Shown: positions 6,201-30,600 of the stretch, piece after piece
Layout of the letters: each line of letters begins with the position of its first letter
How positions within the stretch are numbered: the stretch's first letter is position 1
Source: Vermamoeba vermiformis
Taxonomy: Eukaryota
DNA: 64,000 bases
Direction of reading: 5' to 3'
Assembly (NCBI GenBank): GCA_045837725.1
Contig: JBEWZL010000235.1
Coordinates: 62,001 to 126,000 of the forward strand
Translations under genes and position numbers: made by a program
Notes under the pieces: generated by a model
Database searches by the model: none
What the model was told of the DNA's origin: nothing
What the model saw: only the letters and a program-made list of their open reading frames with translations

Positions 6201-7908
6201 GCTAGTTAACTAATCTGGTTTAGATTCAACCCTAATGCCAACAATGATCCAGTCGTGGTGAACATTCGTTGGACTGGTGGCCCGGCACTTGAACACGAAG
6301 GTGAAGTGCAACTTTTGTTCGCGTTTGTTCCGAACACTACCGCCTGGTACACTGGTGCTGGCTTGCCTTCTGATCCTGTGCCCAACACTGGTTCGTTTGA
6401 CTGGAAAGTTCCACGTGGCTTCAAAGTCCAAGGCGTTCGCATTGGCGTGTTCTCGCTCGACTTTGACGACAATTTTGCCGCTGCTACTATCTCCGTGAAC
6501 GGTGGACAACCTACGGCTGAGAAGGGCATCACACCTATTTACTCTACTTGGGGCGAATGTTCCATGGAGTGCGGCTATGGTACGTCAAAAGCCCTTTAAA
6601 AGTAACGCTTGTCTAACATTGTGTAGGCTTCATGACTCGCGAAAAGAGATGCTTCGACTATCAAATGAACGACGTCACTGCTGCCTCTATCTGCAATGAT
6701 GCTCTGTTCTTGGAGTAAGTTTGATTACCTCTCTCGTAGTAACATATGGATCTAACTTATGCGTCCAGGCCTACCATTATTGGCTGCAATGACTTCCCTT
6801 GCGAAGACTTCCCACTTCAAATCAGCTCTCCAGCTTTCGCCGATCGCGTTACCACTGGTGAGGCAGTTAAGCTCGAGTGGTCTGGCGGTGCTGTCGACTC
6901 TGGTGTCGTGCTCGAATATCGTCACGCTATTCATCCTAACAGCACTATCCATGAAGTTCGCGAGGAAGAAATCTTTGAAGAAGACACTCTTACTTGGTAC
7001 GCGCGCCATATTAATATTGACTAGAATGATAGCTGACAATTCTTAGGTCCGAGTGGATCCCGCTCTTGCCTCCATTCTTCCAAGGCGACAAGTCAATGGG
7101 TAAGTCTATTGAAGCGCTCATAATTGTTAAGGTCCGTATATTAACAGATCTTCTTCAGTTCCCAACAGTGGCGAATACGATTGGTTCGTGCCTGAAGATC
7201 TCAGAGGCAACTGGGTGTACTACCAGATCCGCGTCACTTCTGACCGCAACACAAGCAACTCTCACGTCTCACCTACATTTATCGTCTCTCGCGCCGTCAG
7301 CCTCCGTGTAGAACTGACACAAGATCACATCGCGTCCCCTCAGATCGCTGTCACTTTGAACGGCATGTTGGGATCCAGCGAGCCTTTTGTCATCGACACA
7401 GCTGAGCTCAACAAGAAACGATTCGTTGATCTCATTGACTACGAGGATGTTGGTGATATTTTGTCAGTCTCTTTGGACCTCTTTGAGGAGTCAGATCGTG
7501 GTGACAGGTTGGATTCAGCTTTGCGCATCGTTCAAGTCAACGCTTTGGAACAAGATGTAACTGTCGCTTTTAAGAGTTCTATTGCCCATCAAGAACGATT
7601 CAATTGCGAGACTTTTGATGGTGACTGCGCTAGTTGCACCTCTTTGGATGGTATGTCACGGAAGATCGAGATCCCAACTGTTAGATCCGCTGCTTAACTT
7701 AGTTTTTATAGCGTCTTGCGGTTGGTGCCCAAGCACATCGAGCTGCATGGTGAAAAACAACATTACTGGCCCTATTCAATGCCCTTCAGCTCTCATTATG
7801 ACCGAAGATTTCTGCGCGTCAGGTGTTGCCGAAACTTCATTCGCTGTTCGTGGAGCCGTTTTGTCTCTCGTTGGCTTGACACTCGCAGCTATTGTTGCTT
7901 TGTTCTAA
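3208..7908 (+). CDS. Multi-exon secreted/GPI- or membrane-anchored protein with TSP1 and PSI-like Cys repeats and a PLAT-like segment
   Basis: Signal peptide MVKSGWTSFVVFVAFALVGLTTA; TSP1 motifs WSTCSSTCGSG and WGECSMECGYG; PSI-like CDKCAAQAPSCFWCASTNKC and CGWCPSTSSC; hydrophobic C-terminus; about 17 introns. Confidence 0.75.
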
Positions 7909-8279
7909 GTTGTACTTTGTCTTATTTCAAAATAATGTAGCATTTAAATTTAGCCCAATCAATAGCAGTTAAGTGCATCCACGGCAGTACTTGTTTAATC
8001 GAATTCGAAGCCAAATATTTCTAGGGACAGTAGATTCACTTGCTAAATGTGTTTAGTTTGACCATATTATAACGGTTATTTTTGACAGCTTGTCACGTAG
8101 GTAAAAAACCAAACGAAAATATGTTGATGAAATAAAATCGAACGTCAACGTTTGCTTAAATATTAATTTTTACAAAGATGGAGATCAAAGGTAACGGCAA
8201 AGAAGAAGCTCGCGTTCTACTTAAAGAGAAGTTGCGCGTTTACGATGCCAAAACAGAGAAGTGGACGAGTGGTACCCTT

Positions 8280-10798
8280 TGTAACCGCCACTTATAACTT
8301 TATGCCTAACCAGGCATAAGTGGCGGATGTTGGTCGCCGCTTTTGGTAAACTTTCGCGCGCAATCTAAAATTAATTCAAATGATTAAAGTGCATAAATAT
8401 TTTTATTATCAGTAACATAACATTCTATAATAATATACTCTGTATAACATAAAATTTAATAAAAACAAATCTGTTTGATCTTCAGTTATTTAAACCGATC
8501 TCTTTCCACAAACGCGATTGTGAGCCCTTACTTGTTTGGGCAATGCGTTGGCGCTTTCGAGGTTGATAAACTTGATAATCTAGCAAATAATTAATAATTT
8601 TAAATCCAAATCTAGTTAATTTAATTTTTACCTGGTTCATTATTTTGACGCTTAGGTGCCTTGTTCGTATCTGTAGCCACACTTACTTCTTCTATTTCTT
8701 CTGCCTCCTTTTCTGCTGCTGTTGGATACGGTGCTGTTATTTCAAGCCATTGATCTTCGCTGGGCAAGACGTCTGCCTCCACCAAGTCATCATAAAGAGC
8801 ACAAAGCTCATCGGGAGCAACGCGCACATTCGTGTTGTTGTTACTATCGTGTTCGGGTTGGAAAGATTCTGTGTGAAAATTTGTCAGAAAAGCGCAGGAC
8901 ACAAAAAATCGGTTATTACTTTCTGCTTCCGCTTCTTCTTCCATTTGCTTTTCGCCGGCACCATCTTCGCCAGTCGTCTCCAGTATATTTTGTTGAACAG
9001 GGACTATAATCAATTTATTAGTGACGTGTGGATTGGATGTTAGAATATACCTTGGTCAACGGCATTGTTATTATTGCTTCGCTCTGCAATTAAATAATAG
9101 TTGGTTATAATAAATTGGTGAATAATTAATTGGACTTACCCCGATAAATTTTGAGTTCACCAGCGCTCCAAGTCTTTCGGTTTTTAGCATTGCTTGGCTC
9201 GTTCTCAAGCCACTCCAAACCATACCGGCCATTTTTGTGCTCTGCCGTAATTCGTGCAATGCTGTTGTAGAGAAAGTCACCATTTTTTCGAAGCTCTTCT
9301 GGCCAGCGATACAGAACTTTTTGACCAACTTTGAACACACGCAACTTGGAATGATGTTTAGCGTTGTGCACCTTGTCTTGTTTCTCTGCTGCTTTGACCA
9401 AGTTATCGTGAGCGATCGCAAAAAGGGAGACCATTTCTTTGTGTTGGATTTGTTTCAGTTCGGGAAGCGAGATGTCTTTAGTGGGGGTTTTGATGATTGG
9501 TCGATGTAATTGCATTGGTGAGAAGCCAGTGCTGCTATGCTTGTTATTGTTATAGAGATCAACTACTTCGTCAAAGCAAGCCTCGAGGTCATCCGCAGAT
9601 ACACCATCTTTTCCTCCAAACCGAGACTCCAGTAATTTATAAAGCATTGCCTTTAACGTTCGATTAACGCGTTCAACTTGTCCTAATAAATAATTAGAAT
9701 TTATTAAAATTAAGAATAGTAAAATAAATAATATTACCTTGGCTCTGTGGATGGTAGGGCCGACCATGGATTAATTCAATGCTAAATTCCTCGCAAAATT
9801 GTTTCAGAATATCTGCGATAAATTCTCCTCCGTTATCGCTGTGGATCTTTCGTGGCTTTCTTCCTTCTTTCTTGACCAACGCCATGAGAAATGACAATAC
9901 ACCAACAGCATGCTTTGTTGGCAAAAATTTGAACCACACGAATTTTGTGAAGCAATCGATGACAATAAGGAAGTAGCCAGGGACTCCTGGGATCTGAGTT
10001 AAATCAATCTGCCATCGGGCAAACGGCTCCCTATAATGCTATTAGCAAGAACAAGGATAAAATCAATACATACTCCTCAATAATGTGCTCGAGGGGCGGT
10101 TTTGTTTCGTCTACTCGAGTTCTCTGGCAAATTGGGCAGGAACGGATGTAGTTTTCAACATCTTGCTTCATGCCAAACCAATGCTGGTTAAGTTTGATGA
10201 AAGCAAGTGTTGGATCGCGACCAGGGTGTCCTCGCTCATCGTGCGCGTCATAAAACAATTGGTTTAGGTCTGATCGTCTGTTGTTGTGTCAGTGCGAAAA
10301 AATAAAACAAAATGAATAAAAGTGTTACCGAGGCACAGCAAGCCATTTCCGTTCGTGCACAACCTCAACACTATAGTGGACATTAAGCTTTGGGACATCA
10401 GGAACCTCTTCTGTTAACCACTTCGTGACCTTCTTTTTGGATTTGACAGCCTGACACAGTTGACCATTCACGATCTCAAAATTATTACCAGCTTGTCGTT
10501 GGTAGCACTGCTTCATGTTGTAATTAAGATCGAGGCCAGCAAACGCATCGGGATCTTCGCGTTTCAATTTAACGAGCAGATCGTACTTCCAATCTTCCAT
10601 TCTGAGTAAGAATAATTAATGATAGCGTTTAATTTGCTTAAATGTATTTTTTAAAAATATAACGGCTATATTTTTCTGCTAATATTCACAAAATTCTTAC
10701 CCATTTTCAAATCAGATGGCGCGAAAGTATTGGCAAAAAAAGCGACCAATTCCCGCCAGTTTTGCCTGTCTGTTATAAAATTATAAGTGGCGGGAACA
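8280..10798 (-). mobile_element. Ginger2/TDD-like DNA transposon (retroviral-type integrase with TIRs)
   Basis: TGT...ACA termini; imperfect TIRs tgtaaccgccacttataactttat vs rc tgttcccgccacttataattttat; 5-bp TSD CCCTT at 8275-8279 and 10799-10803; no RT, gag or LTRs. Confidence 0.9.
8482..10600 (-). CDS. Intron-containing DDE integrase/transposase (H2C2 zinc finger + rve core + acidic tail)
   Basis: AHDERGHPGRD...CPICQR; QIDL; HSDNGGEF; PYHPQSQG|QVERVNRTLK; YNNNKHSSTGFSP; exons joined by GT-AG introns. Confidence 0.88.
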
Positions 10799-13271
10799 CC
10801 CTTTGGGCTAAATCTGACGGTACTGTGAAGTGTGAGGTAAGTATTATTGGTTTATTCAATATTAAAAAGCTGAATTTCAACACCAATTTTAAATCCAAAA
10901 AAAATTCTTTAATTCAAATAATTCGCTGTTTAGGGAAAAGAAATCATCGTTGGCCCTTTTGTAACTACGACTCGTCCGAAATTTGGCAACTTTGATTTTG
11001 TTTTCGTGATTAACACCGAGATCGAGACGAAAACTAAAACTGGACCTCGATTTGCTTGTCAAACACTAGCAGTAAGTTTGATTTTTATTTTTTTTATCTT
11101 TTTTGACTAAGTCCGAATTCGATAGAGTTGCGAACGTTGGATTTCGCTCCTGAACCTGCTTGCGTTACAAAAGAAGATGAAGCTAAAGCATCTGCACCCG
11201 CTCACTGAAGTGGACGCAAAAAAGGGACTAAAAGTTAATTGTAATATTTGCAAAGGATTAGCTACTCAACGTAAGTTCGGAGCGGCCCATCCACTTTTTT
11301 GCGTGCTAATCGATCACCTTCAGATTTTGCATGCGAGTTTTGCAATTACTATGAGTGTAGAGAATGTAACAAACAATTGAAAGAAAAATTGGAAGATTTT
11401 GTAACGAGTATTCACCATCCACATCCACTCATGCGACTCAACTCTGCTCGAGGCATGTGGATCAGCTCTGAATACAAAGGAACATATCAAGTAAGTCCAT
11501 TAATAGTCACAAAATCTCGTTTTATCTCGTTGAGTTTTGAGATCCGATCAAAGTTCGAGTACTGACATTTGAGACCAGTGTGACCGATGTGATGCAGTCT
11601 CAAACACGACAGTCTACCACTGTGTCGAGTGCGGCGACTACGATCTGTGTCCAAAGTGCACGTACGAACTGCCACAAGGACAGATGTCTGGACGCACGGA
11701 AACTATCGAGGCTCGAACACCAGCTGAACTTTGTTTGAACGAACAGTTCTTGGCACCAGTGCTCAAGACTGAGGGCAACAAGTACTCGCTAGTCAATGCA
11801 CATGATCACAAGTGTCCTGAGAAGATGAGCATGATCACGACCAAGTGTTTCAACCTCAACGAGATTGACAGTGAAGTGCATCCAAGTGCGTACATGGAAG
11901 TGACTTTCACGGAAATTGACAAGAAAGGCATTGTTGGTGTGGGCATTGGCAATCAGATCTTTGGTCAAAACAACTTCTTGGGTCATCAGCAGAACAGTTT
12001 TGGAGTGTTCAACAATGGCACGGTAAGCTGTCGCATTTTGAACTCCTATTGCTCAGCGCATTCATTTTGACAATGTTATCATCGTCCACAGATCTGCATG
12101 AACAATACGAGCAATCAACAGTCATTCCCAAGCATTGCATTCGTTGCAGGTGACACGATTGGCATTGGAGTGATGAAAGACTCGTTCAATCAGCGCACTG
12201 TGTTCTTCACCAAAAATGGCAAGAAGATCGGAATCTTCGAGTGGCGTGTGCACACAGGCATGGATTGCTTCCCAGGAGTGTCGTTCTCAAAGGACTCTGG
12301 TGTGGCGTTTTCAGTGAACATGAGTGGTCCGTTCAAGTGCGATCTGAAGCAAGTTGCAGAGCCACGCACTGACAAAGACATGCTATCTACAATGCCTGTC
12401 GAGATCATCGAGATGATTGGCGCCATGACCGTCACTTCAGATAGACGCGCGTTACAACTTCGCGAGGTATGTCAAAGTCACGAGGAAATTTCAATTGTGG
12501 AATCATACTTAAAACTTACATTTGCAGATAAACAAAGTATTCGCCGCTGTAATGCAAGGCAATGCGGTGTGGCGCTCTTTGTTCTTGCAGAAATGGTCCA
12601 ATCAGAACAAGAACTTGAAGGTCAAGTCGTGGCAACAGCTCTATCGCAAGAGAAATACGGCGATGAAGACAGCCATCGACGCTCATCCTATTGGTACGTT
12701 CAATGGCTCTGTTGGATCGGCGTGAAATTTCTAATAATTTTTATTGCAGAGAACTGTGACATGGAGTTCGAGTGTCCCATACTTTGGGAACGATTGGAAG
12801 GCAAAGGCGTGCAAAAACAAGGCGAGCGATATTGCGATAAATGCAAAAAGACCGTTTACGAAGGTAATTTGATACATAAAATAAGTCAATACCCAAAAAT
12901 TAACGTTATTTTTCAGTGCAAGATGAAGCCACAATGAATTTGTACACCGAGATGGGCCGTTGTGTTTCACTTTTTGAGCCACGTGGAATTGATATTAACA
13001 TTGAACGAGATGATTATAGATTCGAAAAGCGAGGCAAAAGAGCTCCGCCCAAGAGAAGCGGTTTTGTTGATAATAATCCGTTCAATTAACAGTGTAAAGT
13101 CGATGTAAAAGTATTGTTTGTTCTTACGGAGTTTTTAATGCATTGTGAAGATTACTGCCGCCGCGATCATTTCAATTCTTTTTAGAGAAGGATTTTTTAG
13201 AAACTGCCTGAAATTTCAAAACACATGACAGCGAGGTAAAAACTGGGCAACTTCAACAACAAGAAGAACAA

Positions 13272-13869: not shown

Positions 13870-15650
13870 CTATCTAAACTATAATATTGACTTTCACTTG
13901 TTTTAGCATCGCATTGTAAAATTTGGATCTGCTCCATCCATAAAAAAGAATTTTTCTTTTTAAATTCTAGAACGTACCGTTAAAATAGGCTTTATTATGC
14001 AGTTTTGAATCGCTTGGGTGGATTAATAGTACCATACTCATCTGTGCCGTAGTTCTCAACTTCTTCGATGGATCTCTTGGATGTCATACCAAGAAGAGAG
14101 CTATGGTTGACTATTATTTGACCACTGAGTCCATTACCATTACGACTGCTATTCGAAAATGAACTTATCATTGCGCCCTAGTGCCTTGTGTTACAACACA
14201 TATGAATAATGATTATTGACGTACCGGTGCCGTGAGACTATGTTCAATGAGGACAGGTGTGGCCTTGAATTCTTTTTGTCGCTGCTGTTCAATGAACGGC
14301 TGAAGAGTCTCGAGTGTGTCACGTGACATTTCGGGCGCGTCACTTTTGATCGTTTTCAACGTCTCTTCAACACCGTTCAAGGCACGACCAACGATATCAA
14401 GTTTTTTACGAATCATAGGCCTTAATAGGATTAAATTACTATTATTTCGCGCGTTGAATTGTAGCGTACCACATGACATCATCGACCGTGCCAGGTGCCA
14501 CCAAGTAATAAATATTGACGTCACGTTGTTGGCCTATTCTGTGGACCCGGTCTTCAGCTTGAATGAGCATCTAAAGCGATAGTTAGATATGCTGTATCGA
14601 GTACTAGCCGTGACTTACACCGGGGGTCCAATAGAGCTCTGCAAACACAACGACATTTGATTTTGTCAGCGTGATACCAGCCCCTGCAGCAGTGATACTA
14701 AGCACCGCTACACGCACTTGAGGATTGTTTTGAAACATTTTCACGCGATTGTGTCGTTGATCGAGTGTTGTATTGCCGTCAATACGAATGAATTGGACTC
14801 CCTAAAAACGTCAGATCCGGATCCAAATGAAAAATTGTTCGTACCTTGGCTTGAAGCGCTTGAGAAATAGCGTCCAAGAGCTGCAAATGATGTGCAAAGA
14901 CGAGAAATTTGTCTTGAACTTCAAGTAATTTCGTGACATAGTTGACCACACCAGGGATTTTTACGAGTGAAGTGGCCCTGTAGTTCTCCATCAAATTGTC
15001 TTTGTTCTTGAACACTTTTGAACTCATCCACGCTAACACAGCCTCTTCGGCCGCAGTCAAACCTTCTTCGTCCTCGATCTGGATCTCGTCTTCTGCATTC
15101 TCGTTCATTTTCACAGAATTCATTTGTCCGCTGGGCAGTTGTACGGAGATATTAACTTTGTGTCTGTGCTTCGCTGGCAGTTCATTCAACACATCTCGCT
15201 TCAATCGCCGAATCATTAGTGACCTTGACAACAGCAAATGAAGTTCGCGCAAGTGACACGAGCCTTTGAAATTTTCATCAAAATAGCCCTAGTGAAAAAA
15301 GAATTAATATTTTTAGTTATTATTGAGGATTATTAGAGCGTACTTGACTATCGACGCAATAACGCAGTCCAAACACTAGAATTTTTTGGCCGGTAAATCT
15401 CAAGTGTGACAAATCATCACATGTCCCGTAGTATCTACATGTGACAATTTTGTCACCCCGCGACAACGTGACCCGCTGATGTCTGGTTGAGCTAGTACGT
15501 TGGCCAAGCAGCCGCTACGGTACATGAGCATTAATTTTAATAAACAAGAGTTTGTTTAATATGTTTTATTATCCCAATTACAAATTGGATAGCATGTCAA
15601 ATTGAGAGTCCGTATTGCCGACGCATGATGATTTACACCGTCAAGCATGT

Positions 15651-16751
15651 CTACTCATTTGATTCCGCTTCCTCATTAGAAGAGTTTGCCTATGCAAATG
15701 GTTATTAAAATAAGTTACTGAGGATGTACGTTCTTACCAGAGAATCTTCGGCTTGGATAAGTCTTCTTTTTTTTGTTGGCGGTTCATGTTCCTGTTTGAA
15801 TACATGAGTTATTGTAGTAGTAGATTGAAAAAACCTACCCCGTGTTGCTCTTCATCTTCGTTGGAGGCATTGTCTAATTTGTCTTTAATTGTTTTGCGAA
15901 CCTGCCCATCCAATTACAAACTATTGACGACATAAGGTTACAACTTACAATCATGGCAGCAAGCTCTTTGTCTGACTCGGAAGGGTTCTTTTTGATCCAT
16001 TTTCCAATTTCCACTATTCTATCTACATGGAATTCTAAGTCTTCAGGGTCAACTTGCGAGTTGTCTTTGAAGTAGTCTTGTACGGCAGGAATGATCCGGC
16101 GAACAAAGGATCTATACAAGGTACAGCGAACATATTCTTTAGCCTAAATAGAGGCGTCACTATTTTGCTAACGTGAATGAATTAGTACTCACTTTAGCAA
16201 GAGCGACTTTGAAAAATTGTTCGTTGTCTGGGCTTTTAGAGTCTAGCGCTAATTCAACTTCTATAATTTCCTTAATTTGAGGAGATTTGAGTTGCTTATT
16301 GGTCTTCCAATGTCGTTGAAGAGCATTTTTGATTCGTTTCTAAATTTAGCTGTTAGACGGCAAAAGGATTTAGCCATACTAACCCAGTCATCTTCGCTAA
16401 CAACGGAGTTTGCTAGCACCTTGGACACTGCAGACTTTAGTTGAGAGTATTGCTCTACTTGCAACGTGCTGTGCTTTTTCAGTTCTTTAATATCAGATTG
16501 AAGCGCGCGAACAATTTTGGTAATTGGCTCCAACATAGTAGTAATTGTTTTGAGAGTAACCTGCCAGTTAATAGTTACCAATTGTTTGCACTAAACTTCA
16601 AAAGGGATACCTGATTACTGCTAGCCAAGTTATCTTCCTTGTCATCCGCGAAAAGGACTTCATCAAATGAAGCCAATTTACTCCAATTTGTGTTGGTATT
16701 GGAAATTGATGAAATTTTGTTTGTGTTTAAACTGCTACTGTTGCGTTTCAT
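15651..16751 (-). CDS. CACTA-borne multi-exon orphan protein with a coiled-coil (about 300 aa)
   Basis: ORFs 16575-16811, 16261-16581 and 15874-16119 are linked by plausible GT-AG introns; no recognisable motif. Confidence 0.5.
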
Positions 16752-16813
16752 TGAATGATAGGATGTAACTGGACAAAAACAGTCGTTCATTAAGTTGTAG
16801 AATTTTATCAATT

Positions 16814-19800
16814 TTATTTACGAAGAACAGTTAAGTCATGGGTGGAGTGAGCATTGATTCCGTCACAATGTATGCAAAATATCACTTCGCAAACATTACA
16901 TTGAAGAGCATAGTGAGAGTACATTCTTTCACAAGCAGGGTTTGCGCAAATACCGCTGCTTGGCAGGGCTTTGGTAATCTTGATGTTTGGTCTATTAGTA
17001 TTGCGCGTTGTAATGTCTCGCATCGTCTCAGTTAAACAATACGCAATGCAGTAGTTGACTTCGTCATTGCGGTTATCCCTGTACTGCTGGATCCTGTAAC
17101 GATGGGTGAAGAAAATGTCTTCAAATGAATACACGGCACTATAAATAATGTATTAATCGTAGGTGTTGCTCAAAAATAATACTTACTTCTTTTTGGTAAG
17201 CCAGAAATTGGCGTACTGAAAAAGGTATGACATGTTGATTACGTCCCAACATAAGAATAGCAGCTTTGATTTCGGGCCGGCAAATATCACAAAAGAATGT
17301 TCGGTAGTGCTTAGAAATATCTCTCCTGGCGCAAAGTGCGTATTCTTAAAACCCAGTCGTCGGACTGCATCGAGAGTTTTGTCTGCATTTTCATAAGCAC
17401 GAAGAGTATTTTCAGGTAAAAGACATACCATTTAGCTTATCGAACTGTTGTTGGTCATTAAAGTATGCAATAGTTGCACCTGCAGAGTCGCTAATATTTA
17501 GAACAAGTCGTGGATGAAAGGCTGCAGACTGTACCGTAGTCAGTAAAACTTTGATAGCATATTTAGCACGTACCTTCTCGAATAAGTGGTACTCATTAGG
17601 TTTTATCGATAGGCGATTAAACAGAAAAGGCATCGCTGTAGGAGTAGTTTGAAGAAAATTCTGTTGCGAACGCAACTCCGCAGGCAAAAATATATTGAAG
17701 GCATCTAGTGGTAGAGACAAAATTTTTGCAGTAGAACAAGGTTGCATCTCAGTTTTGAACATGCATGGCAGCAGTGCATTTCGGAATCTACTTATGTTAA
17801 TTGCCGTTCATAATTTCAAGTTCGAAAGCTTACTTTTGCACCGCACTCTGAATAGCGGTAAAATGCTGCCCAGGAGTAAGCACGCATGGCTCACCAAAAG
17901 ATAATTCGTTGAACAGGTCTTCGGTATAATGTTGCGGTTTAGCCATCAAATCCCGTTCCGTCTCTGAACGTTGGACATCAATTGGCAGTTTTGGCTGATT
18001 GGAAGTATAAACATAATGGTGTTTCCAATAACGGTAGCAGAATCCATCAATTGCATTGCAGGAAGCGTTGGGCAGATTGATGGAGACCTTGCGCAGGGCC
18101 ATTTCAACTGCTAACTGCGTGTACTCGCCGGAGGCGACGTGAATCACGCGTTTGATGTTTAACTTCTTCAGTAAATACGCAATGAATTGCGCAATATCAT
18201 GGTACAAAGTTTTTTCCGTCTGTATATTTAATATCAATTTTGCGTGTAAATGTTGATAAGTAACTTACCGTGGCTTCAAAGAAATTAAGTCCTGCAATCA
18301 AACTTTGATCCAGATTAAATGAGTAAATTGTGCTGCGTTGTCCATTGACTGTAAATTGTTCGGTGGCAAAAGAGCCCGAAATAAGACGTGGGGCATCGTA
18401 CAAAACTTTGAGATAATTAGTAAAGTACCATATTTAATTGCACGATTACCTAATAATGGAATATCTCCGTTCAATTTACTGGTTATGTCGGGCATTGAAA
18501 TATGCGGATTTTTAAGCAGGTCAACAAAGACCAGGAATGTGCCGGATTGCAGGGTGTTGGAGAAGTTGTTCGCGTTGACTGAAAAGTTCCAAAACGACAC
18601 ATAATTGTCAAAGATAGGCATTAGGCAATCCTGGTACGCGTTGATGTCCATTCCATTGGCGGTTAACTTCTTGGAGTAACGCATCCAAGACCTTTCGATT
18701 GCATTTTGCGGCACAAACATCAACTTCTCATCGAGTTGTGATGGTTCTAATTGCATTTTTCCAGAATCTTGAGACTGGGGACTGCCTTGCTGCAGAGTGT
18801 CATCTGGGACGCACTTCGTCAGATGCGACGACAATGAATTATCTCCACCTGCTGGGGAGATTTCATTTGTATCTGGAGCACAAGCCTGTTCTGAATCTCC
18901 AGAGGACAGTTGCTGGGCTTTCTTATTCACTAGGACTAATGAGCGCGATGTTGCCGTTTTTTTGTTTGAATCCCTGGCCGACTTCTCCGCATACTCCGTT
19001 CGTCGCTTCTTTGCCGGTGGCTTTTCATCATCATCCTCAACCTCGATATAGTTGGCAAACTGCGAATCCTTTGTAACTCCAAAATTGACATCATTGGAAA
19101 GAGTGGCCGGCGTTGCAACATCGTACGATCTTTTTTGTAGTTGCACTTTCAGGTTCCTAATTGGCATTAATAATGCAAGCTGGTACCCGATGTGCACGTA
19201 CCTTATATCACTTCTCAGGGCATCTGCAATGAACTCTGCTTTGCCCGATATCTGATCTGCCGGTTTTCCCTCGGTCAAGTTTTGCATTAGTCGAAGGCGG
19301 TTAGCGACATAAGCTTCTGCCTGCTTGGCTTTGTCATCGGTGAGCTTGGTAAAGTGCTCGCAGCAGAATCTTGGACTGAATAGCACGTGCACGTGCGGGG
19401 ATATTAAACGCTCGAGGTGTTTCAGATCGCGCTTGGTGTTGTCCGTGAAATGCGCCAGCCATAAGGTAACTAACTTTCTGTAATGCTCTGTCGTGCACAT
19501 TAGATAAGTGGTAGCATTGTTAAATGATTTACCTAGGCAAATTACAGGCCCGTGCTGCGACATAAGTTTGTTATGAGCGCTCGCAGTAGTCTTTGCATTA
19601 TGAACGTCGGCACTCCTAAAGTACGCTGTAAGACACCATACAAGCACGAGTATATTACTTACGGTGGCAAGAACTCGCAGCAGAACTCTGCCAGACCGGT
19701 AAATGAGAACGACTCGGTATGGTCATTCGCCAAAGCACAAGCAGCTGCAGCCTGCAAGTTGTTAATAGCAATTTAAAACAATTTATATTTACCTGTCGGA

Positions 19801-20304
19801 GTAATTGTTTCGCCTTGTCGTATGGATCTTCGGTCGTAACGATAATAGCGGTCCAACTCTGGATGCCGAGTAATTTAGCTGCCGCATGCCTCTTGTAACC
19901 GTCAACAATATAATATTTTGCTGCTTTTTCCAAACGGTGTTGTTGCAGCAATGCCCCTTTCTGCTCGTCCGTAGGTCTACCATACAATTTATAAAATTGA
20001 TTAAAAAAACAATTATTTACGTACTCCCATAATAGCAAAACCGAATGTGGAAGAATACCCTTTTTCAGAGAGTCGACTAATTTGTTAACACTTTCATCCC
20101 CTAATTGTTTGACCTGAAACAGAGGATCGTCGCCGACGTCGCGTAACATTACCGTGCATTGAACAGTATTCATTCGCATTTGTCTATAAAAAAATTGTAA
20201 AAAAATTACCGCATATATATGTATAAACAAACGCTAGCAACTTACCGAAAATATTCGGGGATTGCTTCGTTGGCAACTTTGTTGTCCTTCTTTTTTTTGC
20301 TCAT
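16814..20304 (-). CDS. CACTA-borne protein: ParB/Srx-like N-terminal domain, degenerate JmjC-like region, C-terminal Cys/His Zn finger
   Basis: QVKQLGDESVNKLVDSLKKG and YYIVDGYKRHAAAKLLG (ParB-like); LPAELRSQQNFL...PRLVLNISDSAGATIAYFND...HFAPGEIFL...LFLCWDV (JmjC-like spacing); CANPAC..CNVC..FCIHC..H..H. Confidence 0.55.
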
Positions 20305-20528
20305 TGTAAACTTTGATGTTGTATTGTTGATTATTGATGTATATCTTAATTAATGAAGACAAGCAAAGCCGAGAAGTGTCGGTAGAAAATTGGATGAAAT
20401 TTCCAGTTAAGTCTTCTTCGGCGAAGACGACTTAACTGGACCCGTACCCAAATTTTTTTTAAGTTGAAAACTTACATTAAACCACTTGTTATTGTTGTTA
20501 TATTATAAGAGAATACTACAAAATACAG

Positions 20529-21930
20529 ATGGAAACAAAAAATATGTTTGCACGGATTATTGAAGCGCAATACGTAAAAGGTGAGTTCGTATCTACTTTT
20601 TATTTATCTTTCTTATATTATGTTGACATATGTAAATATTTTAATGCGTAGTAATTTGTAAAAATAATTTAATTGCGCTTCGTTATTTATTTTTTGTTCG
20701 ATCAGCAACGCAGAACGGTGCTAATGAAACGGAGATGTCCCGTTTATTCATGCAAGCAGCGAAGAATATACAAAGCACTGATACTAATAGTACACGGTTT
20801 ACAAGTATGCAATTATATTAATTGGATCCTCGAATCTAATTTATATTCCTCAGGAAACGATGTAATTCGTATTAAAAATTTCGAGTGGCGTGCGGACCAA
20901 TTTTTACGCTTGAAGGAGAATTTCTGGCTCGACGATATAATAGTGAATACAATAGCCAAGTACGTAGCACTCCATTTTTCATTTTATTACGGCTCCCGCG
21001 AGCTCAGTTCGACACGGATCGATTTTCACGGAGGGCTTTGCAGGTTCCTTTACTTTAATTGTACTAATCAGCCACCTAAGGTTATTTGTCGATAACACGG
21101 ACGGCCAAGATCTGGCAATTGACTCCATTTTCACCGAGCAACAGCAATCGCGGAAGGAGATTGATATTAGCAAGTATCGCTTCGTTTACGTGCCATTGTT
21201 TGACCGAGCAAAACGACATTTCCAGTTGGTTATTATCGACGTAAAGAAAAGCAGCGCAGTGTTTCTGGATCCGAACCCTATTATTAAAGGTAAGCCGAAT
21301 CAACGCAATAGTAGCCGATGCTGATAAACTTCAGGAACGAGAACGAGCACTGCGGCGATAAAGAAATCAATTGGTACATACCTCCCCGAGCTAAAACGGC
21401 TAAAAAAGTTTTCCGTTATCCCTCCGGGTGCAATGCAGCAAAACGCAATTGACTGCGGGTTGTTAGTCCTCTCATATATAAGTGAGCATTCGACCAGCTC
21501 AGCTCCAACATATTCTGAGCAACTCTCACGGCAACAGTTGATTGATTTGATCTTTAAATACCTCGACTCCGTAAGCGCACAACCATTTTCGTTATATCAA
21601 GTTAATTTATTGTGATTTACATCAGGATCAACGACACAAAATTACACGCATGTTTGAACAATATAGCGCATCGAATAGTAAATTAATATTAGGAGTTAGC
21701 AGCGAGCAGGAGATTCACGCACTACAATTAACCGAGGGTATGTTTGACTTCGTAAATAATTATGTATATTTATAATTAATTTGTAGATTTCTTGCAATCT
21801 TACATAAACAAATTAGCGCAAATTGCACCACTCCAAATTCCCGACGACGTCTCTTCGGACCTTGTCAAGACAGTTGCCTATTATCATACGAAATACTTGT
21901 ATAATTATGCTTACCCTTTCATTTAATAAA
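20529..21930 (+). CDS. Ulp1/SENP (C48) cysteine protease, possibly fused to the downstream AlkB-SRA region
   Basis: Spliced protein contains LRLKENFWLDDIIVN, VPLFDRAKRHFQLVIID, FLDP and QQNAIDCGLLVL, giving the His/Asp/Gln/Cys catalytic set. Confidence 0.8.
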
Positions 21931-23067
21931 GTGGACGCCGAGCAATTCATCCAAAGGCCTTTACTTCCACATGCGCAATTAATTTACAACGCCGCTACAA
22001 CGCTGGAGTCGTTACTTTGGAATTCATTGCTGCAGCCATCGATAGATTGGTGGCTGCCATTTAATAACTTCACAAGTGGAGGCAATGCGATGCCAAAAAT
22101 ATACTGTGCGTTTTCAAAAGACATCTCTATTCGACATTATGTGCCGCACAGCGGTGGATCAAGACCCCTGCTCGCGTACCGTGCGCAATCCGTTGATCAG
22201 TTTCCTCTTGCTGAGACCTTCAATGCAATTTTACAGCGCTATCAATTCACGAAATGGAATTACATTACAGTGGTTATGTACTGCGGCAAAAGGTCGGGTA
22301 TCAGCGCTCACCGGGACCAATTCCAAATTGACGGTTTTGACCAAGCAGAAGAACAGATCGCTTCATTCGTTTTTGGTGACGAACGGTAATTACCATAATC
22401 CAACGCATCTTTTTAACCGTCCAATGTCAGGTATCTGGATCTCATCATTGACGAGCAGCAAGTCTCCATCGCAAATCCTTCGGGTTGCTTGTACCTCATG
22501 GATGGGATTCAAAAGTATTGCAAGCACAAGAAAGATGGAGGTACGGGAGTAAGCATCAGCGTTATTTTCAGACACTTGCTCCCGTATGATGGTGATTCCG
22601 AGGAGGCTGATAGGCTTAATTTGCAAGTTCATCTACCGTGGAGTCAGCTTTCTTCTGCGGCAACTCTTTGGAAGCCAGATCCAAAACTTGAAAACGACGT
22701 AGCCATGAAGACTTTTTGGTTTACAAAAATGCACTTCAACTTCAGTCAACGTCATGCATGCTATCATCAAGCCATATCTAGCAAAGGCAACATTATTCAG
22801 TCGGTGCTAGTTACAAACTGCGGTAACGAAGTAGCACCCGATGCAAGTACCATTATGTTTCAGGTTCCACTGAACTATTCGCGGTTGGCAGCTCTGAAAC
22901 TTACCAAAAAGCTGCAGCGGTCCTTCCGCGTCTACTGCAAGACGGTTTTTTTCCCAGGGCTGCCAAGTAATCTGTATTTGTTCTGCGGAACGTATTTAAT
23001 TACTTCCGCTTATAGAAAAGACGACCACAATCTGTTTTATAAATTTCAACGCATTAATGAGCACTAA
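21931..23067 (+). CDS. AlkB-like 2OG-Fe(II) dioxygenase followed by an SRA/YDG-like domain
   Basis: NYITVVMYCGKRSGISAHRD (HxD), IASFVFGDER, GCLYLMDGIQKYCKH (distal His), SVIFR; then RHACYHQAISSKGNIIQSVLV...AALKLTKKLQRSFRVY...YLFCGTYLI...FYKFQRI (SRA-like pattern). Confidence 0.7.
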
Positions 23068-24848
23068 CTGGTGGTGCCATATTTGTAATAAAGAACTTAA
23101 AAGTGACCAAAACAGACACTTTAGCACAAAAAAGCACCGTCTTAAAGCAGAACAGTTTAATGCCAATCAAACGAAGCCCGACAATGCAGTCGATGATACC
23201 GCAGGTATTTTTTAACGATACATGTCATTTAATATTAATAATTAATTTATTATTTAATTAGATCCCGTTCCCGACCAAACCAAACAGCAACAGACTACCA
23301 CGGAAGAGGGTATGCATATAGATGCTGCCCCTTCTTGTACTATGGCAGCCAATCCTCCACCAAACACTCCCTTGCCAACAAATCCTCCGTCCGTCGAACC
23401 AACCGTCGAACCAACCGTAGAGATACTGCTGCATCTCTTTTGCATGCAGAAGAGCATATCGTTAAAGAATGAAAAGACGTTGTTCAACATCCTGTCGACG
23501 CCAATTTTCCAACGAGGCTTCTTAATTCAATCGTTTGATGCCTTTAGAAAACAATTAGATATCAGTTTACGTGATATTGAGCCAACTATAATCCACTGTA
23601 GCACAAAGCATCCTGGTCAAAAGAATTACAAGCCCCTAGACCCAAACAAGTTAGGCCCAACTTGCGCTATTCCGGTGTACAACCTCCGTCAGCACTTGGA
23701 AAGTTTTCTCAAAGACGAACAACTCAGCAGAAGTGTCATTACAAAGCACAACTGCGATGGAAATACATACTCCGACTTCACTTCCGGCACCTACTTCCGA
23801 GATTTGTGCTTATCGCTACCGGAAGACGTAGTTCCCCTTTGTTGTAAGTAATTTCTCGCTTCATTTCTACAACTTATCTAAACTCTCTTTAGTGGAACTA
23901 TATTGGGATGATACTGGTATATCCAGCAAGAAAAAATGCGGTCCACTCTGGATTGGTATCTCTAACACGAAACCTTCGATAAAGCGCATGCCCCGTTCTC
24001 GAATGCTGACCTCTGTTTTACTGGGCAATGCCGATCCAAGTAGCGTTTTTAGCGAAATCGTCAGTCAACTACAGCATATTAAGCTCTACCCATTTTATTT
24101 TGGTTGTGACCAGGTTAACAAATTGTGCCACGTAACATTATCAATGGTACTAGGTGATGCTCCCGCTAGTAATGGTGCCATAGGTACGTATTATTTTTCT
24201 GCCTACCTGTTATTCAACGCCAACAGGATTGCGAGGACCAACATGTTCATCCCCATGCAGACTTTGTACCGTGTCAAGAAAAGACTTGAAATCAATTCCA
24301 GAGATTGATTTGGATAATTCCTCTATCGATGAACTACCCTGGGCCATTCGAAACCCCGCGGAGTACTTTAACTTGGTAAATGACGTGCAAAACAATTATA
24401 AGCGAGGCGAAATGGAGTTCCAAGAAAACCGTCTCAAAGAGTTAGGAGTTGGCTATTATGCGGTATGTACAAATACTCAACTGTATGCATTTATAACACT
24501 ATACAGAGTCCTCTTTGGCGAATCCCAGGCGTCAATCTTTTCGCTCAATCTCCATACTGTTTATTGCACAACGAATTCCTAGGTAAGATTACCGAATAGT
24601 ACATGCATTTCCTAACGATTGTCCAAGGATTGATCCCGTTTCATATTGATTGTACCCTCGGAGAGTTGTCAGCTGAAGCAATTGATTTGATTGGCCGACG
24701 AATAATGTCTTTCCCAACCATACCTAACTTGCCGTCACTTAACGTGGGACGAACTTTTAACAAGGTGAAAAATATCCCGCTATCAAACTGTAGACTTTAC
24801 ACTTTTAATATAAACTTTACACTTTTAGTCTAAACTTTCTGTTAATAA

Positions 24849-27593
24849 TCAGTGGGTGCCTTCCTTTGCTCGGTATTGTTTTGCAACTTCATAAACAATC
24901 TTTCTAATATACCCTTTGGTATATTTCTCTTCAAATACATCATGTGCCAAGAAGTACAGGAGATTGAAGGATATGCCTTGTTTTTCAGCTTTGACCCTAT
25001 TCAAGCCTGCAATGCACTTTTGAATGTCTTCTTGTGAAACCTTTGGATAATTTGCTTTTCGTGTTGTAAAGTGAAGGAACTTCAAATCTTCCATTGTACT
25101 GAAGGACAATAGTTGTGCAAAGGTTTCTCCAGCATTAAGAGAGTATGGCGTAGTCAGCTTTAAAGATAGCTGCACCATTTCATGTAGTTTAGTTGCCAAT
25201 GGATTATCATTCAGCTTATTTTCCTTGCTGGGAAAATGCAGTGTTAGTAGTGAGTGTAAAGTTGACAGTACGCACCTGTAATTGAACAGAAATTGCAAAT
25301 GTGTAATAATAGCATTTAGTAGCTCGAATGAACAGGAACCACTGTAGAAAGGTGAAGATTTTTTCAGGTACTTATGCCATGCCTCATTTGCATTAGTTCC
25401 CCGTTTAAACTCTTTTAAAGACGCTGAGTTCAAAACTGCTTTTGAGTATCCAGCTTTGTCACTCAAAAAATTGTTTACAGCACCTTCCACTTTGGTGGTA
25501 ATAATTGAAGGGAAGCTTGCTGGCTTTGGAGAGCCACTGAACGAGTAATGTTAGTGTAAAGTGTAAAGTTTGCACTTTAAATTTTACCCTGTTATTGTTT
25601 CGGCCAAATTTTCGATAAACAGCTGCATATCTTTGTCGTTATCTCGGTTTGCTGCCCTATACGTATCCAGCCATAAATGTAACTCGTTATGTAGGAACTC
25701 TGCCGTTGGGGATTGCTTGTTGGCAAGTTGAGCAAATATGGCACTCAAATCCTTTTTACAACTGTAGTAATCTGGTAAAAGAAGTCAAAATGAGACTAAC
25801 AATTTGTTATGTTACCTGGGTGATTGTGTGCTAACACAGTATCTATTCTATGGATCACATGCCACACATCCTGGCAGGTTTTTGGTGGATTGTTTGCATT
25901 TGGAAATGAATTCCAAAAAGCTTTTTCAATCACACTCTTATCTATGTGCATAAATTTAATAGTTAGTAGCTGGCTTTAGTAAATTGTTAGGTACCTTTGC
26001 GGCTATCATCAGTAAAAATGTGAGTTGTCACAGGAGCAGGTAGAAGGTCAAAAATTGCTTTCAACTCAGAGAACATGTAACTTCGTTCATCTGATGGTAC
26101 TAATTTAGTACGTAGCACTTGGCCATGTTCATTTAAGATGGACAGCAAAGAAGCCTTGACTTGTACCTGCAATGGTAAACTGTAAACTTTACAGTAAGAA
26201 AAATTTATTGTCCCTTACCCTTTTGCCATCAGACACAGCAGACAAAGCAGAGGCTATTTTATATGTGTGGTCTATCCGCAGAACAGCTCCAGTAGATTTT
26301 ACCAAATGTGATGTGTAGTTGTTGAAAAACTGTTGTTGCATGCGAAACTTATACAGATACAGGGCTTCCAATGTTGAAGAAGATATTACATAACTATCTT
26401 CAACAGATTGTAGAACTTTAGGAATATCATCCTCAACGAATACATGTGTGAACAGTGCCTGAACAACCTCATTATAAAAAAGAATGTAAAGTGTATAGTT
26501 TACACTTACCATTCTAAGTTTATGCGTTAAGTTTGCAACCCAACCAGTAAATATTGCTCGGGATAGAGCTGAAAAGTTGAAACAATGGTCTGGGATTGTA
26601 TTGAATATGTACTCAAGGAAGTGGGTTGTCACCACAGTTCTATCAAACACTACAATTTGAGGGGTAACTTCATAGTCCTGCAGTTCCAACTGTAGTAAAG
26701 AGAATCTACAATCATGTATCTGGCAATAATAGCGGTGATATTGAAGGAGGAATGGTGTTGAAACATCATAGCAGCGGTGTCGTAAATTATGGCCGTTCAA
26801 TGAAATTTTGCACTTCTCATCCTACAATAAGTTAGTCAAAATGACAATAAAAAATGATACACGGTACCTGTTGGTGCTTGTTGCAGTACTGAGGAATGTA
26901 CGAAAGCATATTCACTTTTTGCTTAGCTTGCCAAAGTTGAAGGTGTTCTACTGGCATTACTGATTCAATTGATGAAGCAAGATCATCCTCTCGTTGAGTA
27001 TTAAAGACCGGTGGCTCATGGTCATCAATTAACAGCTGAGAAAGGCTTGAAATAAGAGGCTCCATGGGGTCAGTATCTGCAGAATTGGATTAGTGTAAAG
27101 TGTAAAGTGTAAAGTATAAAGTGTGCCACACGGTAAACTTTCCAATGGGCGAGACCAATTCCCGCGCTTTTTAACCGTTACCTTTTGCTTTTTCTTCTTT
27201 CATTAGTTGTGCCTTCGATGTCTTTGAGCTCTCTGGTTTACTTATTGGGGCAATACGAGCCTTTGTTTGTTTTTGTGTGTGTGGTAACCGTTCTTTGTCC
27301 GTTTTCAAAGTTGTGGCTGTTTTAATTTTGAGCACATCTGTTAAAAAATTAGAAAAGTGTGGGAAAATATATTAAAATAATTGACCTGCACTATGCATCA
27401 TAGCTTGTTGATGCTGCTTCATCTCCTTTTTAGATCTCTTCGTTATGCCACAGATGGCGTTTTTTTTGTAATTGAAAAGCTGGCAAGTGTAATAAACCTT
27501 GTGGTTACCAGCCTTTCCAAAAGTAATTTTTTGGTGACAGGTGTAATCTTTACTGTCACTATCAAGTTGCACCAGTGTAAACTTGTTCGACAT
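24849..27593 (-). CDS. Mutator-like DDE transposase with N-terminal Cys/His finger (multi-exon)
   Basis: LRIDHTYKIA, SLLSILNEHGQV, HIFTDD, RGTNANEAWHKYLK; N-terminal YTCQ..AICG..HQQAMMH. Confidence 0.75.
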
Positions 27594-27636
27594 CTTGGTC
27601 GCCAAAAAATAAATAACTGCAACGAGTAACGCAACG

Positions 27637-30600
27637 ATGTCACAGTATAATACAAGATCTAGGGGACGTGCCCTAGAAGCAGATAATAATAATAACAACT
27701 CAAAAAAAAGACGTCGCAGCTCAGATTCGAATTCGGCAGAGCACTCAGGTGAAGAAAATGTTACCAAAAAACGTAAAACAGGTAAATATATATGCAAAAT
27801 ATTTTTTTAAACGTCACTGTATATTTTTTATAATTTTCTGTGTCGGATTCCACATTTGCTAATCCGCGCCAGATGGCAACAACAACGGAGCTGAACGTGA
27901 TGCTAATAGCATCAATAAAGAGGACGATCAACGTGACCACGCACCCGGCAAGTCCCGCTCCGAGAAGCAAACAGGTAAGTCTTGTCCGAATTTTTCAAAA
28001 TTCCGCATTTGCTAATCTCGCACCAGATCGCAACAACAAAGCTGAAGAAACCGATGCTGATAGCATCAATAATAAGGACGACCAACGTCCTCACGCGCCC
28101 AGCAAGTCTCGCTCCGAGCAGCGAACAGGTAAGTCTCATCTCGAATGTAAAGAAATTCCAATTTCGCTAATCTCGCACCAGATCGAAACAACAACAGTGC
28201 GGAAGCAGAAGCTAATACTGTTGATAAGGAGAATGACCAGCGTCCTCACGTGCCCAGCAAGTCCCGCTCTGAACAGCTAACAGGTAAGTCTCATCTCGAA
28301 TTAAAGAAATTCCAGTTTCGCTAATCTCGCAACAGATCGAAACAACAAAGCGGAAGAAACCGATGCTGATAGCATCAATAACAAGGACGACCAGCGTCCT
28401 CACGCGCCCAGCAAGTCCCGCTCCGAGCAGCGAACAGGTAAGTCTCATCTCGAATCTAAAGAAATTCCACTTTCGCTAATCCCGCACCAGATCGCAACAA
28501 CAACAGTGCGGAAGCAGATGCTAATAGCGCTGATGTCGAGAATGACCAGCGTCCTCACGCGCCCAGCAAGTCTCACTCCGAGCAGCAAACAGGTAAGTCT
28601 CATCTCGAATCTCCAAATCTAATTTTTTGCTAATCTCGTGTCAGCTAACAACAATAACGGAGCTGAAACTGATGGCAATAGCGCCGATGAGGAGGACGAT
28701 CAGCGTCCTCACGCGCCTGGCAAGTCCCGCTCCGAGCAGCGAACAGGTAAGTCTCATCTCGAATCTAAAGAAATTCCACTTTCGCTAATCTAGCACCAGA
28801 TCGCGACAACAAAGGTGCTGAAACTGATGGTGATAGCGCCGATGAGGAGGACGACCAGCGTCCTCACGTGCCTAGCAATTCCCACCCCAAGCAGCAAAAG
28901 GGTAAGTCTCATCTCAATCTGAAGCGAATTCGCATTCACTAATCCCGCACCAGATCGTAACACCAAAGCTGCTGAAACTGATGGAAATAATGCCGATGAT
29001 GAGGATGATCAACGCGCTCATGCACCTGGCAAGTCCCGCTCTGAGAAGAGTACGGGTAAGTCTCATCTCGAATCTCAACAAATTCCACTTTCGCTAATCC
29101 TGCACCAGATCGCGACAACAAAGGTGCTGCCAAGAAAACAAATAGTCGTAGCAAACGCACAAATGATCGCTCAAACATTTCCGACAAATCCGATGAAGAA
29201 AAAGAGCAAGGTAAGTTACATTTAAAAAAATCTTTGGTGATCTAACTCTGAATTTGCTCTGCAGGTGACTTAAGTGATGCAAATAGCAGCGAGGAGCGCA
29301 GCAATCATACTACCAGCAAGAATAGCAAGCCTCGCAGGGAGACAACAGCAAAGCAGCAGCAGGAAAAGAAAACTAAGCAAACATCCTTGCCCGAAGGTAC
29401 GTACAGCTGTAGACTTTACACTGTAAACTTTACACTGTAAACTTTACACTAACCGCGTTCGTTGGCAGGCTTACGTGACGCCTCAGCCCAACCATATGCT
29501 ACTGCAGATGTTTTAGCAACTGTCCACAAATCGTCTCTTGTTGCTGTTCTGGGGCAGGGTGAAGAGACATGGTATGCTATTGTGAAGGCACCACCAAAAA
29601 AGAAGACCTCTTCTGCACATCTGACTGTTGATTGGTTGGAAGTTGCACGAACAGCTAGCAATGGTGCTCTAATCCTTCAGAATTCCGATGAAAGTCCCTC
29701 AATCATTGAGCTCGGAGCAGTGTTGGATGTCGTGCGTCACACACCCTTAGTGGGTGGAACTTCAATGGTGGACAAGGCAGAACAAAAGAGGCTTGCTGGA
29801 ATTCGTAAGTCAAACAAAATATCATTATTTGCTCTAATTGTGGCAAAGGGGAGAGAATAGTGACCCAAAGTGCAAAAAAGAAGAGCAAAAAGGGAGCGAA
29901 ATCGTAAGTGAAACTGTAAACTTTACACTTTACACTTTACACTTTACACTTACTTATTTTCCAGGGTACCTATAGATGTTGAGGAGGAGATAGAAGAAGG
30001 CAAACCTGAACAAGCCCGTACTCCTGTATCTAAGCATAAAAAGGCACCTTTGTAAGCATATTAATTACACATATATGCACTGTTACTAATTGCACTAGGC
30101 CTGCACCAGCCAAACAACAAAAGCCTGTAGACAGTTACGATGCTGGGGAGGTTGGTGAATCTGGTGAAGAAGAAAATAACCTTGAAGAAACACCAACCGC
30201 CATTTCAGAATTTTCGCATGAATGTGGAGTCACAGTGTCTTCAGTCTATGAAAAAACTGATGCATGTAAGTGCCCCATTACTTGTTTTATTTAATCTAAT
30301 CTCTGTTCAAGGGGAACTCAGGCTTGGCAAGTTCATACTTTGGTTAACAAAAAGAGGAGTGATGCAAAAATCGTTTTTGCTGGGCCCTACTGGGCAAGCC
30401 AGGGGGGCTACCTCCTCTTCCCTGCACCAGTATTTATACTACCGTACGTGCCACTGAAATATGTAAACTGTAAACTTTACACTAACAATTTTACAGTAAC
30501 CCACGCTTTTCTGAATGTCAAGCTACCTACTGCCCAAAAAAAGCGTTCTGTGTTGCTTGGTGCTGGATTACCTGAAGGTGCACATCACAACTACACTTTG

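Follow-up and report, generated by a model that had tools for sequence, protein, structure and literature searches.

A candidate accessory gene with a ParB-like head beside a putative EnSpm/Plavaka-type transposase in Vermamoeba vermiformis

Between positions 16814 and 20304 of a 64,000-nucleotide stretch of Vermamoeba vermiformis DNA (contig JBEWZL010000235.1 of assembly GCA_045837725.1, positions 62,001 to 126,000; hereafter called the window), the minus strand carries a row of open reading frames (ORFs), which we call gene X and which lies among genes resembling those of a mobile element. The locus raises the question whether this row is one gene at all, to which known proteins its product is related, and what such a gene would do on a transposon. 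A sequence-only reading had proposed a transposon-borne protein consisting of a ParB-like head, a pseudo-JmjC domain and a zinc finger. The explanation we favour, if cautiously, assigns gene X to a large cut-and-paste DNA transposon of the EnSpm/Plavaka (CMCT) kind that carries several genes; X would be an intact accessory gene of this element and would probably encode a DNA- or chromatin-targeting factor working with a neighbouring dioxygenase and peptidase.

Gene X fills the interval exactly, from an ATG at 20304-20302 to a TAA ending at 16814, and is assembled from nine exons separated by eight canonical GT..AG introns of 41-62 nt; the window contains a single copy. The single spliced protein expected from sequence alone is borne out, as the spliced coding sequence of 3111 nt has no internal stop, but its length is 1036 amino acids (aa) and not about 950. 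All strings that had been quoted from it are present in the minus-strand translations, namely IVDGYKRHAAAKLLG in ORF 19655-20233, QTEK, IAYLL and RVIHVASGE in 17830-18264, PRLVLN and AYFND in 17412-17807, PGE and LCWDV in 17183-17431, and the Cys-rich tail in 16814-17152. Two other joins are possible at exon 3. In the retained model C, the donor is GTAAGT, the acceptor is TTTAG and the ParB-like peptide continues, whereas model A was dropped for its weak GTCTGG donor and model B for its second AG acceptor, which leads to an implausible exon 3 peptide. Structure, family and database tests were made exon by exon, and spliced sequences were tested by in-house scripts using hhalign. Over positions 14000-26000 (12 kb), the read counts of three RNA runs that carry the same species label were 0, 0 and 2; since even the housekeeping-type SNF2 gene in this region is almost without reads, these runs are no test of gene X expression. 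Either another strain or organism goes by this label, or these libraries contain little of the organism. An aquifer metagenome run contains short contigs identical to the window.

The gene X family is rare. An exhaustive HMMER search with exon 4 against 1.84 billion representatives returned only eight proteins, all of them exon-sized fragments from short environmental contigs or contaminant contigs of metagenome-assembled genomes (MAGs). Two homologous loci were retrieved, L001 (1779 bp) and L002 (9704 bp, a metagenome contig). L001 spans residues 441-946 of gene X with about 70% aa identity, and L002 spans residues ~183-1036 with 32% identity (252 of 781 aligned positions). L002 shares introns 4-8 and the intron 3 acceptor with the window, at the same position and in the same phase, and the L002 homologue has two introns beyond those of the window gene. 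Over 433 codons aligned between the window and L001, the nonsynonymous and synonymous differences per site (pN and pS) are 0.166 and 0.762, respectively. Since synonymous sites are saturated and the protein is nevertheless 70% identical, gene X has, as judged from these sequences, evolved under purifying selection. Together with the intron conservation in L002, this indicates that gene X is more than a chance array of ORFs. The L002 copy itself is probably dead, as it carries an in-frame TAG at 7467-7469 and the 5' ends of both X and the divergently oriented Ulp1-like gene are deleted (5223-5324), with about 100 nt left between the two genes. A search with exon 2 in the MAG that contains L001, a first metagenome scan with query segment A2 and a viral-contig scan with query segment A6 gave no match. 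At the end of L001 (1653-1779), the start of exon 9, on the minus strand, and a piece of the zinc finger, on the plus strand, overlap, which is likely an assembly artefact, L001 being a short metagenome contig that is filed in a bacterial MAG.

In bacteria, the ParB/Srx-like module binds DNA and a nucleotide. Exon 2 of gene X is matched by ParB-type profiles of three libraries of hidden Markov models (HMMs), all of which target the same stretch, aa 85-121. These are Pfam ParB_N (PF02195; E 0.008, 16.6 bits against a cut-off of 26.3), five ParB-like PHROG families (E 0.009-0.2) and, from NCBIfam, TIGR00180 (parB_part; E 2e-4, 21.1 bits against a cut-off of 58.45) as well as the ParB/Srx-fold families SerK (E 0.007) and Noc (E 0.09). 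The match to PHROG 1033 extends further and covers residues 19-117. In the ESM Atlas, the top cluster for exon 2 has a score of 0.97, which about 1 in 100 shuffled proteins attain, with 180 shared features; its neighbours are phage proteins of 128-129 aa, and ParB_N is annotated on 12% of the cluster members. When the spliced N-terminus was compared with 22 bacterial ParBs by hhalign, the score was 29.1 (P 0.0014) and ranked first among the 18 comparisons of the run; none of 150 shuffles (mean 14.1, sd 2.5) attained it. This alignment places V-D-G-Y-K-R-H-A-A-A-K-L-L-G of gene X on S-G-E-R-R-x-x-A-S-K-L-A-G of the ParBs, so that the box II motif (DGxxR / GERRxRA) is in register with the family profiles above chance. 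Of the CTP-binding GERR, which is G-Y-K-R in gene X, only the Gly and the second Arg are retained, whereas Glu is replaced by Tyr and the first Arg by Lys. As had been proposed, the N-terminus is in our reading a genuine ParB/Srx-type domain, albeit a divergent one in which the CTP-binding box is incomplete. Gene X shares the box-II-like stretch with the bacterial and phage ParB/Srx proteins (ParB/Spo0J, Noc, phage ParB-like nucleases, SerK), but differs from them in being a eukaryotic, intron-containing gene, in the fusion to unrelated domains and in scores that stay below the cut-offs. Unlike in bacterial ParB systems, neither a partner ATPase nor parS-like repeats were seen.

The assignment to a transposon comes from the neighbourhood. 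Five genes stand in the same order in the window (15946-31924) and in L002 (9058-434; its ORFs mapped by tblastn), with about 32-50% aa identity: the transposase, an AlkB-like 2-oxoglutarate (2OG) dioxygenase, a Ulp1-like peptidase, X and a small gene Y (Table 1). The long gene is called a putative transposase because its motifs YWDDTG, LGD[AS]PA, C-R-L-C and H-V-G-E-H agree with the layout D, D, C(2)C, H(3-4)H, E, which Kojima gives for the EnSpm/Mirage/Chapaev/Transib/Plavaka clade (PMC12730594). That gene X is transposon-borne, and that its homologue in L002 is linked to an EnSpm/Plavaka-type transposase, is supported by the synteny retained in this diverged copy, the transposase being a motif-based call in both places. 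The AlkB-like gene shows the motifs H-R-D, FVFG, a later His and ...VIFR and is 43-51% identical to its L002 copy. It has no Pfam match and no PDB sequence match, but the hhalign comparison with nine bacterial AlkB proteins gave P 1.7e-4 over 83 columns including the HxD, the best of all comparisons. Its interpretation as a divergent, intact-looking, transposon-borne 2OG dioxygenase is supported by these features. For the Ulp1-like gene, weak Peptidase_C48 matches fall on successive profile segments and on both catalytic halves (E 0.007 in the window; E 0.04 and 0.03 in L002). With a nested insertion in the window and with the TAG and the deletion in L002, both copies look like decaying mobile DNA.

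Table 1. Features of gene X and its surroundings in the window (positions in the window unless L002 is named)
Feature	Position	Strand	Remarks
Gene X exon 1	20304-20246	-	
Gene X exon 2	20183-19793	-	
Gene X exon 3	19751-19663	-	
Gene X exon 4	19615-18450	-	
Gene X exon 5	18405-18269	-	
Gene X exon 6	18219-17834	-	
Gene X exon 7	17790-17429	-	
Gene X exon 8	17382-17187	-	
Gene X exon 9	17138-16814	-	stop included
ParB/Srx-like N-terminal module	19663-20183 (exons 2-3)	-	sub-threshold profile matches converging on one stretch
ParB-like core profile match	~19820-19930	-	KYYIVDGYKRHAAAKLLGIQSWTAIIV
Helical domain	19100-19615 (~aa 180-350)	-	conserved in P0005, P0006 and L002; all-helical in the AlphaFold model, predicted local distance difference test (pLDDT) 40-74
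Low-complexity linker	18715-19100	-	acidic run followed by PPAKKRR; pLDDT 30-40, without secondary structure; poorly conserved in homologues
Conserved core	17187-18741 (exon 4 end to exon 8, ~aa 470-930)	-	8-sequence alignment of the exon 4 end; 3-way alignments
C-terminal zinc finger	16838-16948	-	C-x4-C-x5-H-x4-C-x2-C-x4-C-x2-C-x5/6-H-x2/3-H
Small downstream gene(s) Y	15946-16724	-	L002 ORFs 8251-9058 map by tblastn to 16724-15946
Ulp1-like (C48) cysteine peptidase gene	20727-21742	+	limits approximate; divergent from X; syntenic in L002 (4224-5222, -)
AlkB-like 2OG/Fe(II) dioxygenase gene	21817-23067	+	start not fixed; two exons, intron 22386-22430; L002 3068-4312 (-)
Putative EnSpm/Plavaka-type (CMCT) DDE transposase gene	23258-31924	+	split at 24745/30863 by the nested element
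Nested DNA transposon, outside gene X	24746-30862 (6.1 kb)	.	75-bp terminal inverted repeats (TIRs), 92% alike; flanking direct repeat CTTAACG

Some further features of the region may be mentioned here. Within the nested element lie a tandem array with a 154-bp unit in 8.3 copies (27847-29129) and the ORFs 24849-25550 and 26189-26821 (minus strand), which have no Pfam match. Just left of the outer element lies the SNF2-family helicase gene (14604-15288, minus strand; Helicase_C E 4e-7), which probably belongs to the host flank. Positions 11573-12937 (plus strand) and 39345-40296 (minus strand) are near-identical inverted gene copies whose start resembles a ZZ-type zinc finger (CxxC...CxxC) and is followed by a long conserved body; they represent a duplicated gene or another repeat.

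Two published kinds of transposon proteins come close to gene X. Plavaka accessory gene 3 (PAG3) is located in 17-19 kb Plavaka elements of the red alga Bostrychia moritziana; its product combines a ParB-like domain at the N-terminus with a putative 2OG oxygenase, each of which only HHpred recognised, inverted-repeat arrays adjoin the gene, and the protein is proposed to bind and modify its own element (bioRxiv 10.1101/2025.02.11.637652). As far as PAG3 is described there, gene X is likewise an accessory gene on a giant EnSpm/Plavaka-type transposon, has an N-terminal ParB-like domain that only weak profile matches reveal, contains no Pfam domain and is associated with a 2OG-dependent oxygenase. 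However, the oxygenase is fused to the ParB-like domain in PAG3, whereas the AlkB-like oxygenase beside X is a separate gene on the other strand. X furthermore differs in having an unassigned core of 450 aa and a C6H3 zinc finger and in lacking an adjoining tandem inverted-repeat array, and its companions are the Ulp1-like and AlkB-like genes, whereas PAG1 and PAG2 (methylase plus SET) stand beside PAG3. The second kind comprises ParB-like proteins with a DNA methylase, and similar green-algal ones were reportedly described by Iyer, Abhiman and Aravind in 2011. In Ectocarpus, the transposon Sola1-1_Ec32 encodes a ParB-like plus DNA-methylase protein of 1104 aa opposite its transposase, and similar proteins are said to exist in green and red algae (PMC12477816). 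Like this protein, X is of about that length, lies opposite a transposase and has a prokaryote-type ParB-like head. Sola1-1_Ec32 is a transposon of about 20 kb; its protein has been suggested to bind the element that encodes it and to modify it epigenetically. The transposon belongs to the Sola1 superfamily and the methylase domain of its protein is recognisable, whereas X sits in an element of the EnSpm/Plavaka kind and gives no PF01555 signal. VANC of the VANDAL transposons, an anti-silencing protein that is reported in the Bostrychia preprint (10.1101/2025.02.11.637652) to bind its own element, is a functional analogy only, in that both proteins are transposon-encoded and that binding of the own element and counter-silencing may be proposed for X. 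By location, size, strand arrangement and head domain, X fits the PAG3/Sola1-type class, and the earlier suggestion of a ParB module combined with an oxygenase or methylase theme on a transposon matches these algal proteins. In the open-access literature, to which the search was confined, no published description of the X architecture was found.

Several observations weigh against the interpretation of gene X as a ParB-type accessory gene of a transposon. Every ParB profile match lies under its curated cut-off and the strongest ParB alignment has only 31 columns. PDB sequence and profile searches gave chance-level rows only, with exon 2 as with the query segments A4-A8; tblastn of exon 2 against phages gave no match, and database homologue searches for longer proteins with exon 4 and for proteins near its own length with exon 2 found none. 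The ParB part is lacking in L002, the only other copy with a visible 5' end, which leaves the window copy as the only one in which it is seen. The transposase gene matches no Pfam model and, with the L002 ORF as query, no database homologue among longer proteins, and its assignment stays putative on short motifs. TIRs of the outer element were sought between 15200-16100 and 31800-32700 and none were found, the longest match being 11 bp. Unlike at PAG3, Tandem Repeats Finder detected no array beside X in the window (13000-34000) or in L002, and the likeness of X to PAG3 is drawn from the published description of the latter. An alternative that would accommodate much of this takes the ParB likeness for a short chance motif, X being a lineage-specific zinc-finger protein or a host gene that happens to lie beside a transposase. 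We give it little credence, as three independent HMM libraries each have ParB/Srx-fold families as their top matches, all on one stretch of 35 residues, the shuffled controls of the Atlas and of hhalign rarely or never reach the observed scores, and PHROG 1033 widens the match well beyond the short motif. Since the gap in L002 also takes the 5' end of the divergent Ulp1-like gene, the missing ParB part looks like a deletion in a dead copy. A host gene is furthermore difficult to reconcile with a five-gene order that was retained while synonymous sites became saturated.

For the remainder of the product, we therefore continue with gene X as an accessory gene of the transposon. The AlphaFold model of exon 4 (10-row alignment) has a mean pLDDT of 47.6 and is confident only at residues 300-340, a helical hairpin; besides this hairpin, it consists of a helical region followed by about 150 residues without structure. 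According to the model, the linker is probably disordered, and PPAKKRR may be taken as a patch resembling a nuclear-localisation signal. The Cys-rich finger that had been noticed at the C-terminus is supported as a Cys6His3 arrangement with a two-zinc pattern, in which nine of nine Cys/His positions are invariant between the window and L002; weak matches to the IBR, B-box and C1_4 profiles fall on the tail in both of these full-length copies. Between linker and finger lies the core of about 450 aa, in which many polar positions (His, Asp, Arg, Ser, Glu and Lys) are invariant; it contains the invariant stretch R-V-x-H-x-A-S-G-E and the stretch PG[ED]I...WDV. The search for a family of this core in Pfam, PHROGs, NCBIfam, PDB profiles and the Atlas recognised none, and any enzymatic role of the core would be conjectural. 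The comparisons of the core with PF01555, Cupin_8, ParB, AlkB and PhyH by hhalign gave P >= 0.02 throughout, the comparison of X with the AlkB-like protein of the same element gave P >= 0.2, and in the ESM Atlas the best score for exon 6 was 0.89, with no family. The AlphaFold model of the L002 stretch matching exons 6-7 (exon 8 left out) has low confidence (mean pLDDT 36.4). A DUF7834 match on exon 5 (E 0.013) was rejected as chance, since the flanking exons miss the adjoining profile positions.

The sequence-only reading had tentatively seen in this part a JmjC domain without its metal site. In its most general form, the core would be a very divergent 2OG oxygenase of the double-stranded beta-helix (DSBH) or JmjC-like type that lost its metal site, and X a PAG3 homologue in which catalysis was lost. 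Such a view gains from PAG3, which pairs a ParB-like domain with a 2OG oxygenase that was found only by HHpred at E 0.016 and has no Pfam match (10.1101/2025.02.11.637652). Because the PAG3 oxygenase was visible only to HHpred, a missed oxygenase domain would be expected in the weaker tests used here. Our hhalign set-up, with bacterial reference alignments, without secondary structure and without eukaryotic KDM-type JmjC profiles, has low power for DSBH folds and barely links known DSBH families with each other (Cupin_8 vs PhyH P 0.085, vs AlkB P 0.022), and the stretch PGEIF...H...WDV is retained by the window and L001. Nevertheless, we consider this view unlikely, though deserving some weight. 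Across the three copies no His is invariant in exons 7-8, so that an intact HxD/E..H is absent from the homologues: the His of TTEH, which would be the distal ligand, is Ser in L002 (KSTS), and AYFND/VYIND/TFCNND is without His in any copy. The core had no Pfam match at E < 1 and no PDB-profile match, although the PDB holds many JmjC structures, and even the low-power hhalign comparisons stayed at P 0.38 for Cupin_8, P 0.27 for PhyH, P 0.52 for AlkB and P 0.5 for the AlkB-like protein of the element. Between the AYFND and PGE stretches there are only about 28 residues, which is short for strands III-VI of a DSBH. Moreover, the element already encodes an intact-looking AlkB-like oxygenase as a separate gene. 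The pseudo-JmjC call thus finds no signal in Pfam, PDB profiles or hhalign. KDM5/KDM6-type JmjC demethylases have helical and zinc-finger extensions, and X resembles them in the order of a beta-rich segment, a helical segment and a C-terminal Cys/His finger; it is unlike them in that a conserved HxD/E...H is missing and the JmjC-like Cupin_8 family gives no profile signal.

The second domain that had been suspected is a DNA amino-methyltransferase, in which case X would be a decayed ParB-methyltransferase, a beta-class N6A/N4C DNA methylase joined to ParB with degenerate motifs IV and I. The published ParB-methylase accessory proteins are of similar size (1104 aa) and lie opposite the transposase (PMC12477816). 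When exon 6 is aligned with PF01555 by hhalign, the best local match does fall on the stretch named for motifs X-I (query 30-49 against template 259-278 of 320), and at the end of exon 4 a hydrophobic strand is followed by a conserved [NS]-P-x-[ILV]. With P 0.48-0.64 against 17 bacterial PF01555 proteins, the hhalign match does not, however, exceed chance, PF01555 has no match at E < 1 on any exon, and the Atlas result for exon 6 contains no methylase cluster. In beta-class enzymes, motif IV is (D/N/S)PP(Y/F/W), motif I is FxGxG, and roughly 170 or more residues lie between the two. In gene X, the candidates are N-P-H-I, with an aliphatic residue in place of the aromatic one of motif IV, and A-S-G-E-Y, in which the glycines of motif I are missing; they differ from an intact DPPY and from motif I, and are only about 90 residues apart. 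AlphaFold predicts helices and no strands at the end of exon 4, being confident for residues 300-340 only. A methyltransferase origin of the core is thus highly improbable, and so the X-I assignment is not upheld.

With the core left unassigned, the explanation of gene X as an accessory gene of its element can be put as follows. The product would enter the nucleus and would sit on the element's own DNA through its ParB-like head and its zinc finger. There it would act with the products of two adjacent genes, the AlkB-like 2OG dioxygenase and the Ulp1-like peptidase, and the outcome would be that the element is kept free of host silencing or that its transposition is helped. DNA binding, nuclear location, cooperation with the neighbours and the effect on silencing are what we infer from the domains and the gene order. 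The published proposals for PAG3, and for the ParB-methylase proteins that brown and green algal transposons encode, ascribe the same role to those proteins. A bolder version, which we regard as rather doubtful, is that the core of about 450 aa is an undescribed enzymatic or chromatin-reading domain that is loaded on the element's own DNA by a ParB-type nucleotide-switch clamp and that recruits or cooperates with the AlkB-like dioxygenase and the Ulp1-like deSUMOylase. If this were true, three proteins of a eukaryotic transposon, with a bacterial partition module at their centre, would form an anti-silencing machine directed at the element itself.

To our knowledge, no bench study has yet been made of the ParB-like accessory proteins on giant eukaryotic DNA transposons, which are a recent observation from red, brown and green algae. 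The gene X locus would carry this theme to another lineage of microbial eukaryotes, and would do so in a different layout, with a ParB-like head, an unassigned conserved core and a zinc finger in one protein and the 2OG oxygenase in an adjacent gene, unfused. That the ParB-like domain and the oxygenase are fused in one lineage and are neighbours in another may be taken as comparative evidence that both work together. Moreover, gene X offers a compact and intact gene for asking whether ParB modules serve as DNA clamps in the nucleus of eukaryotes.

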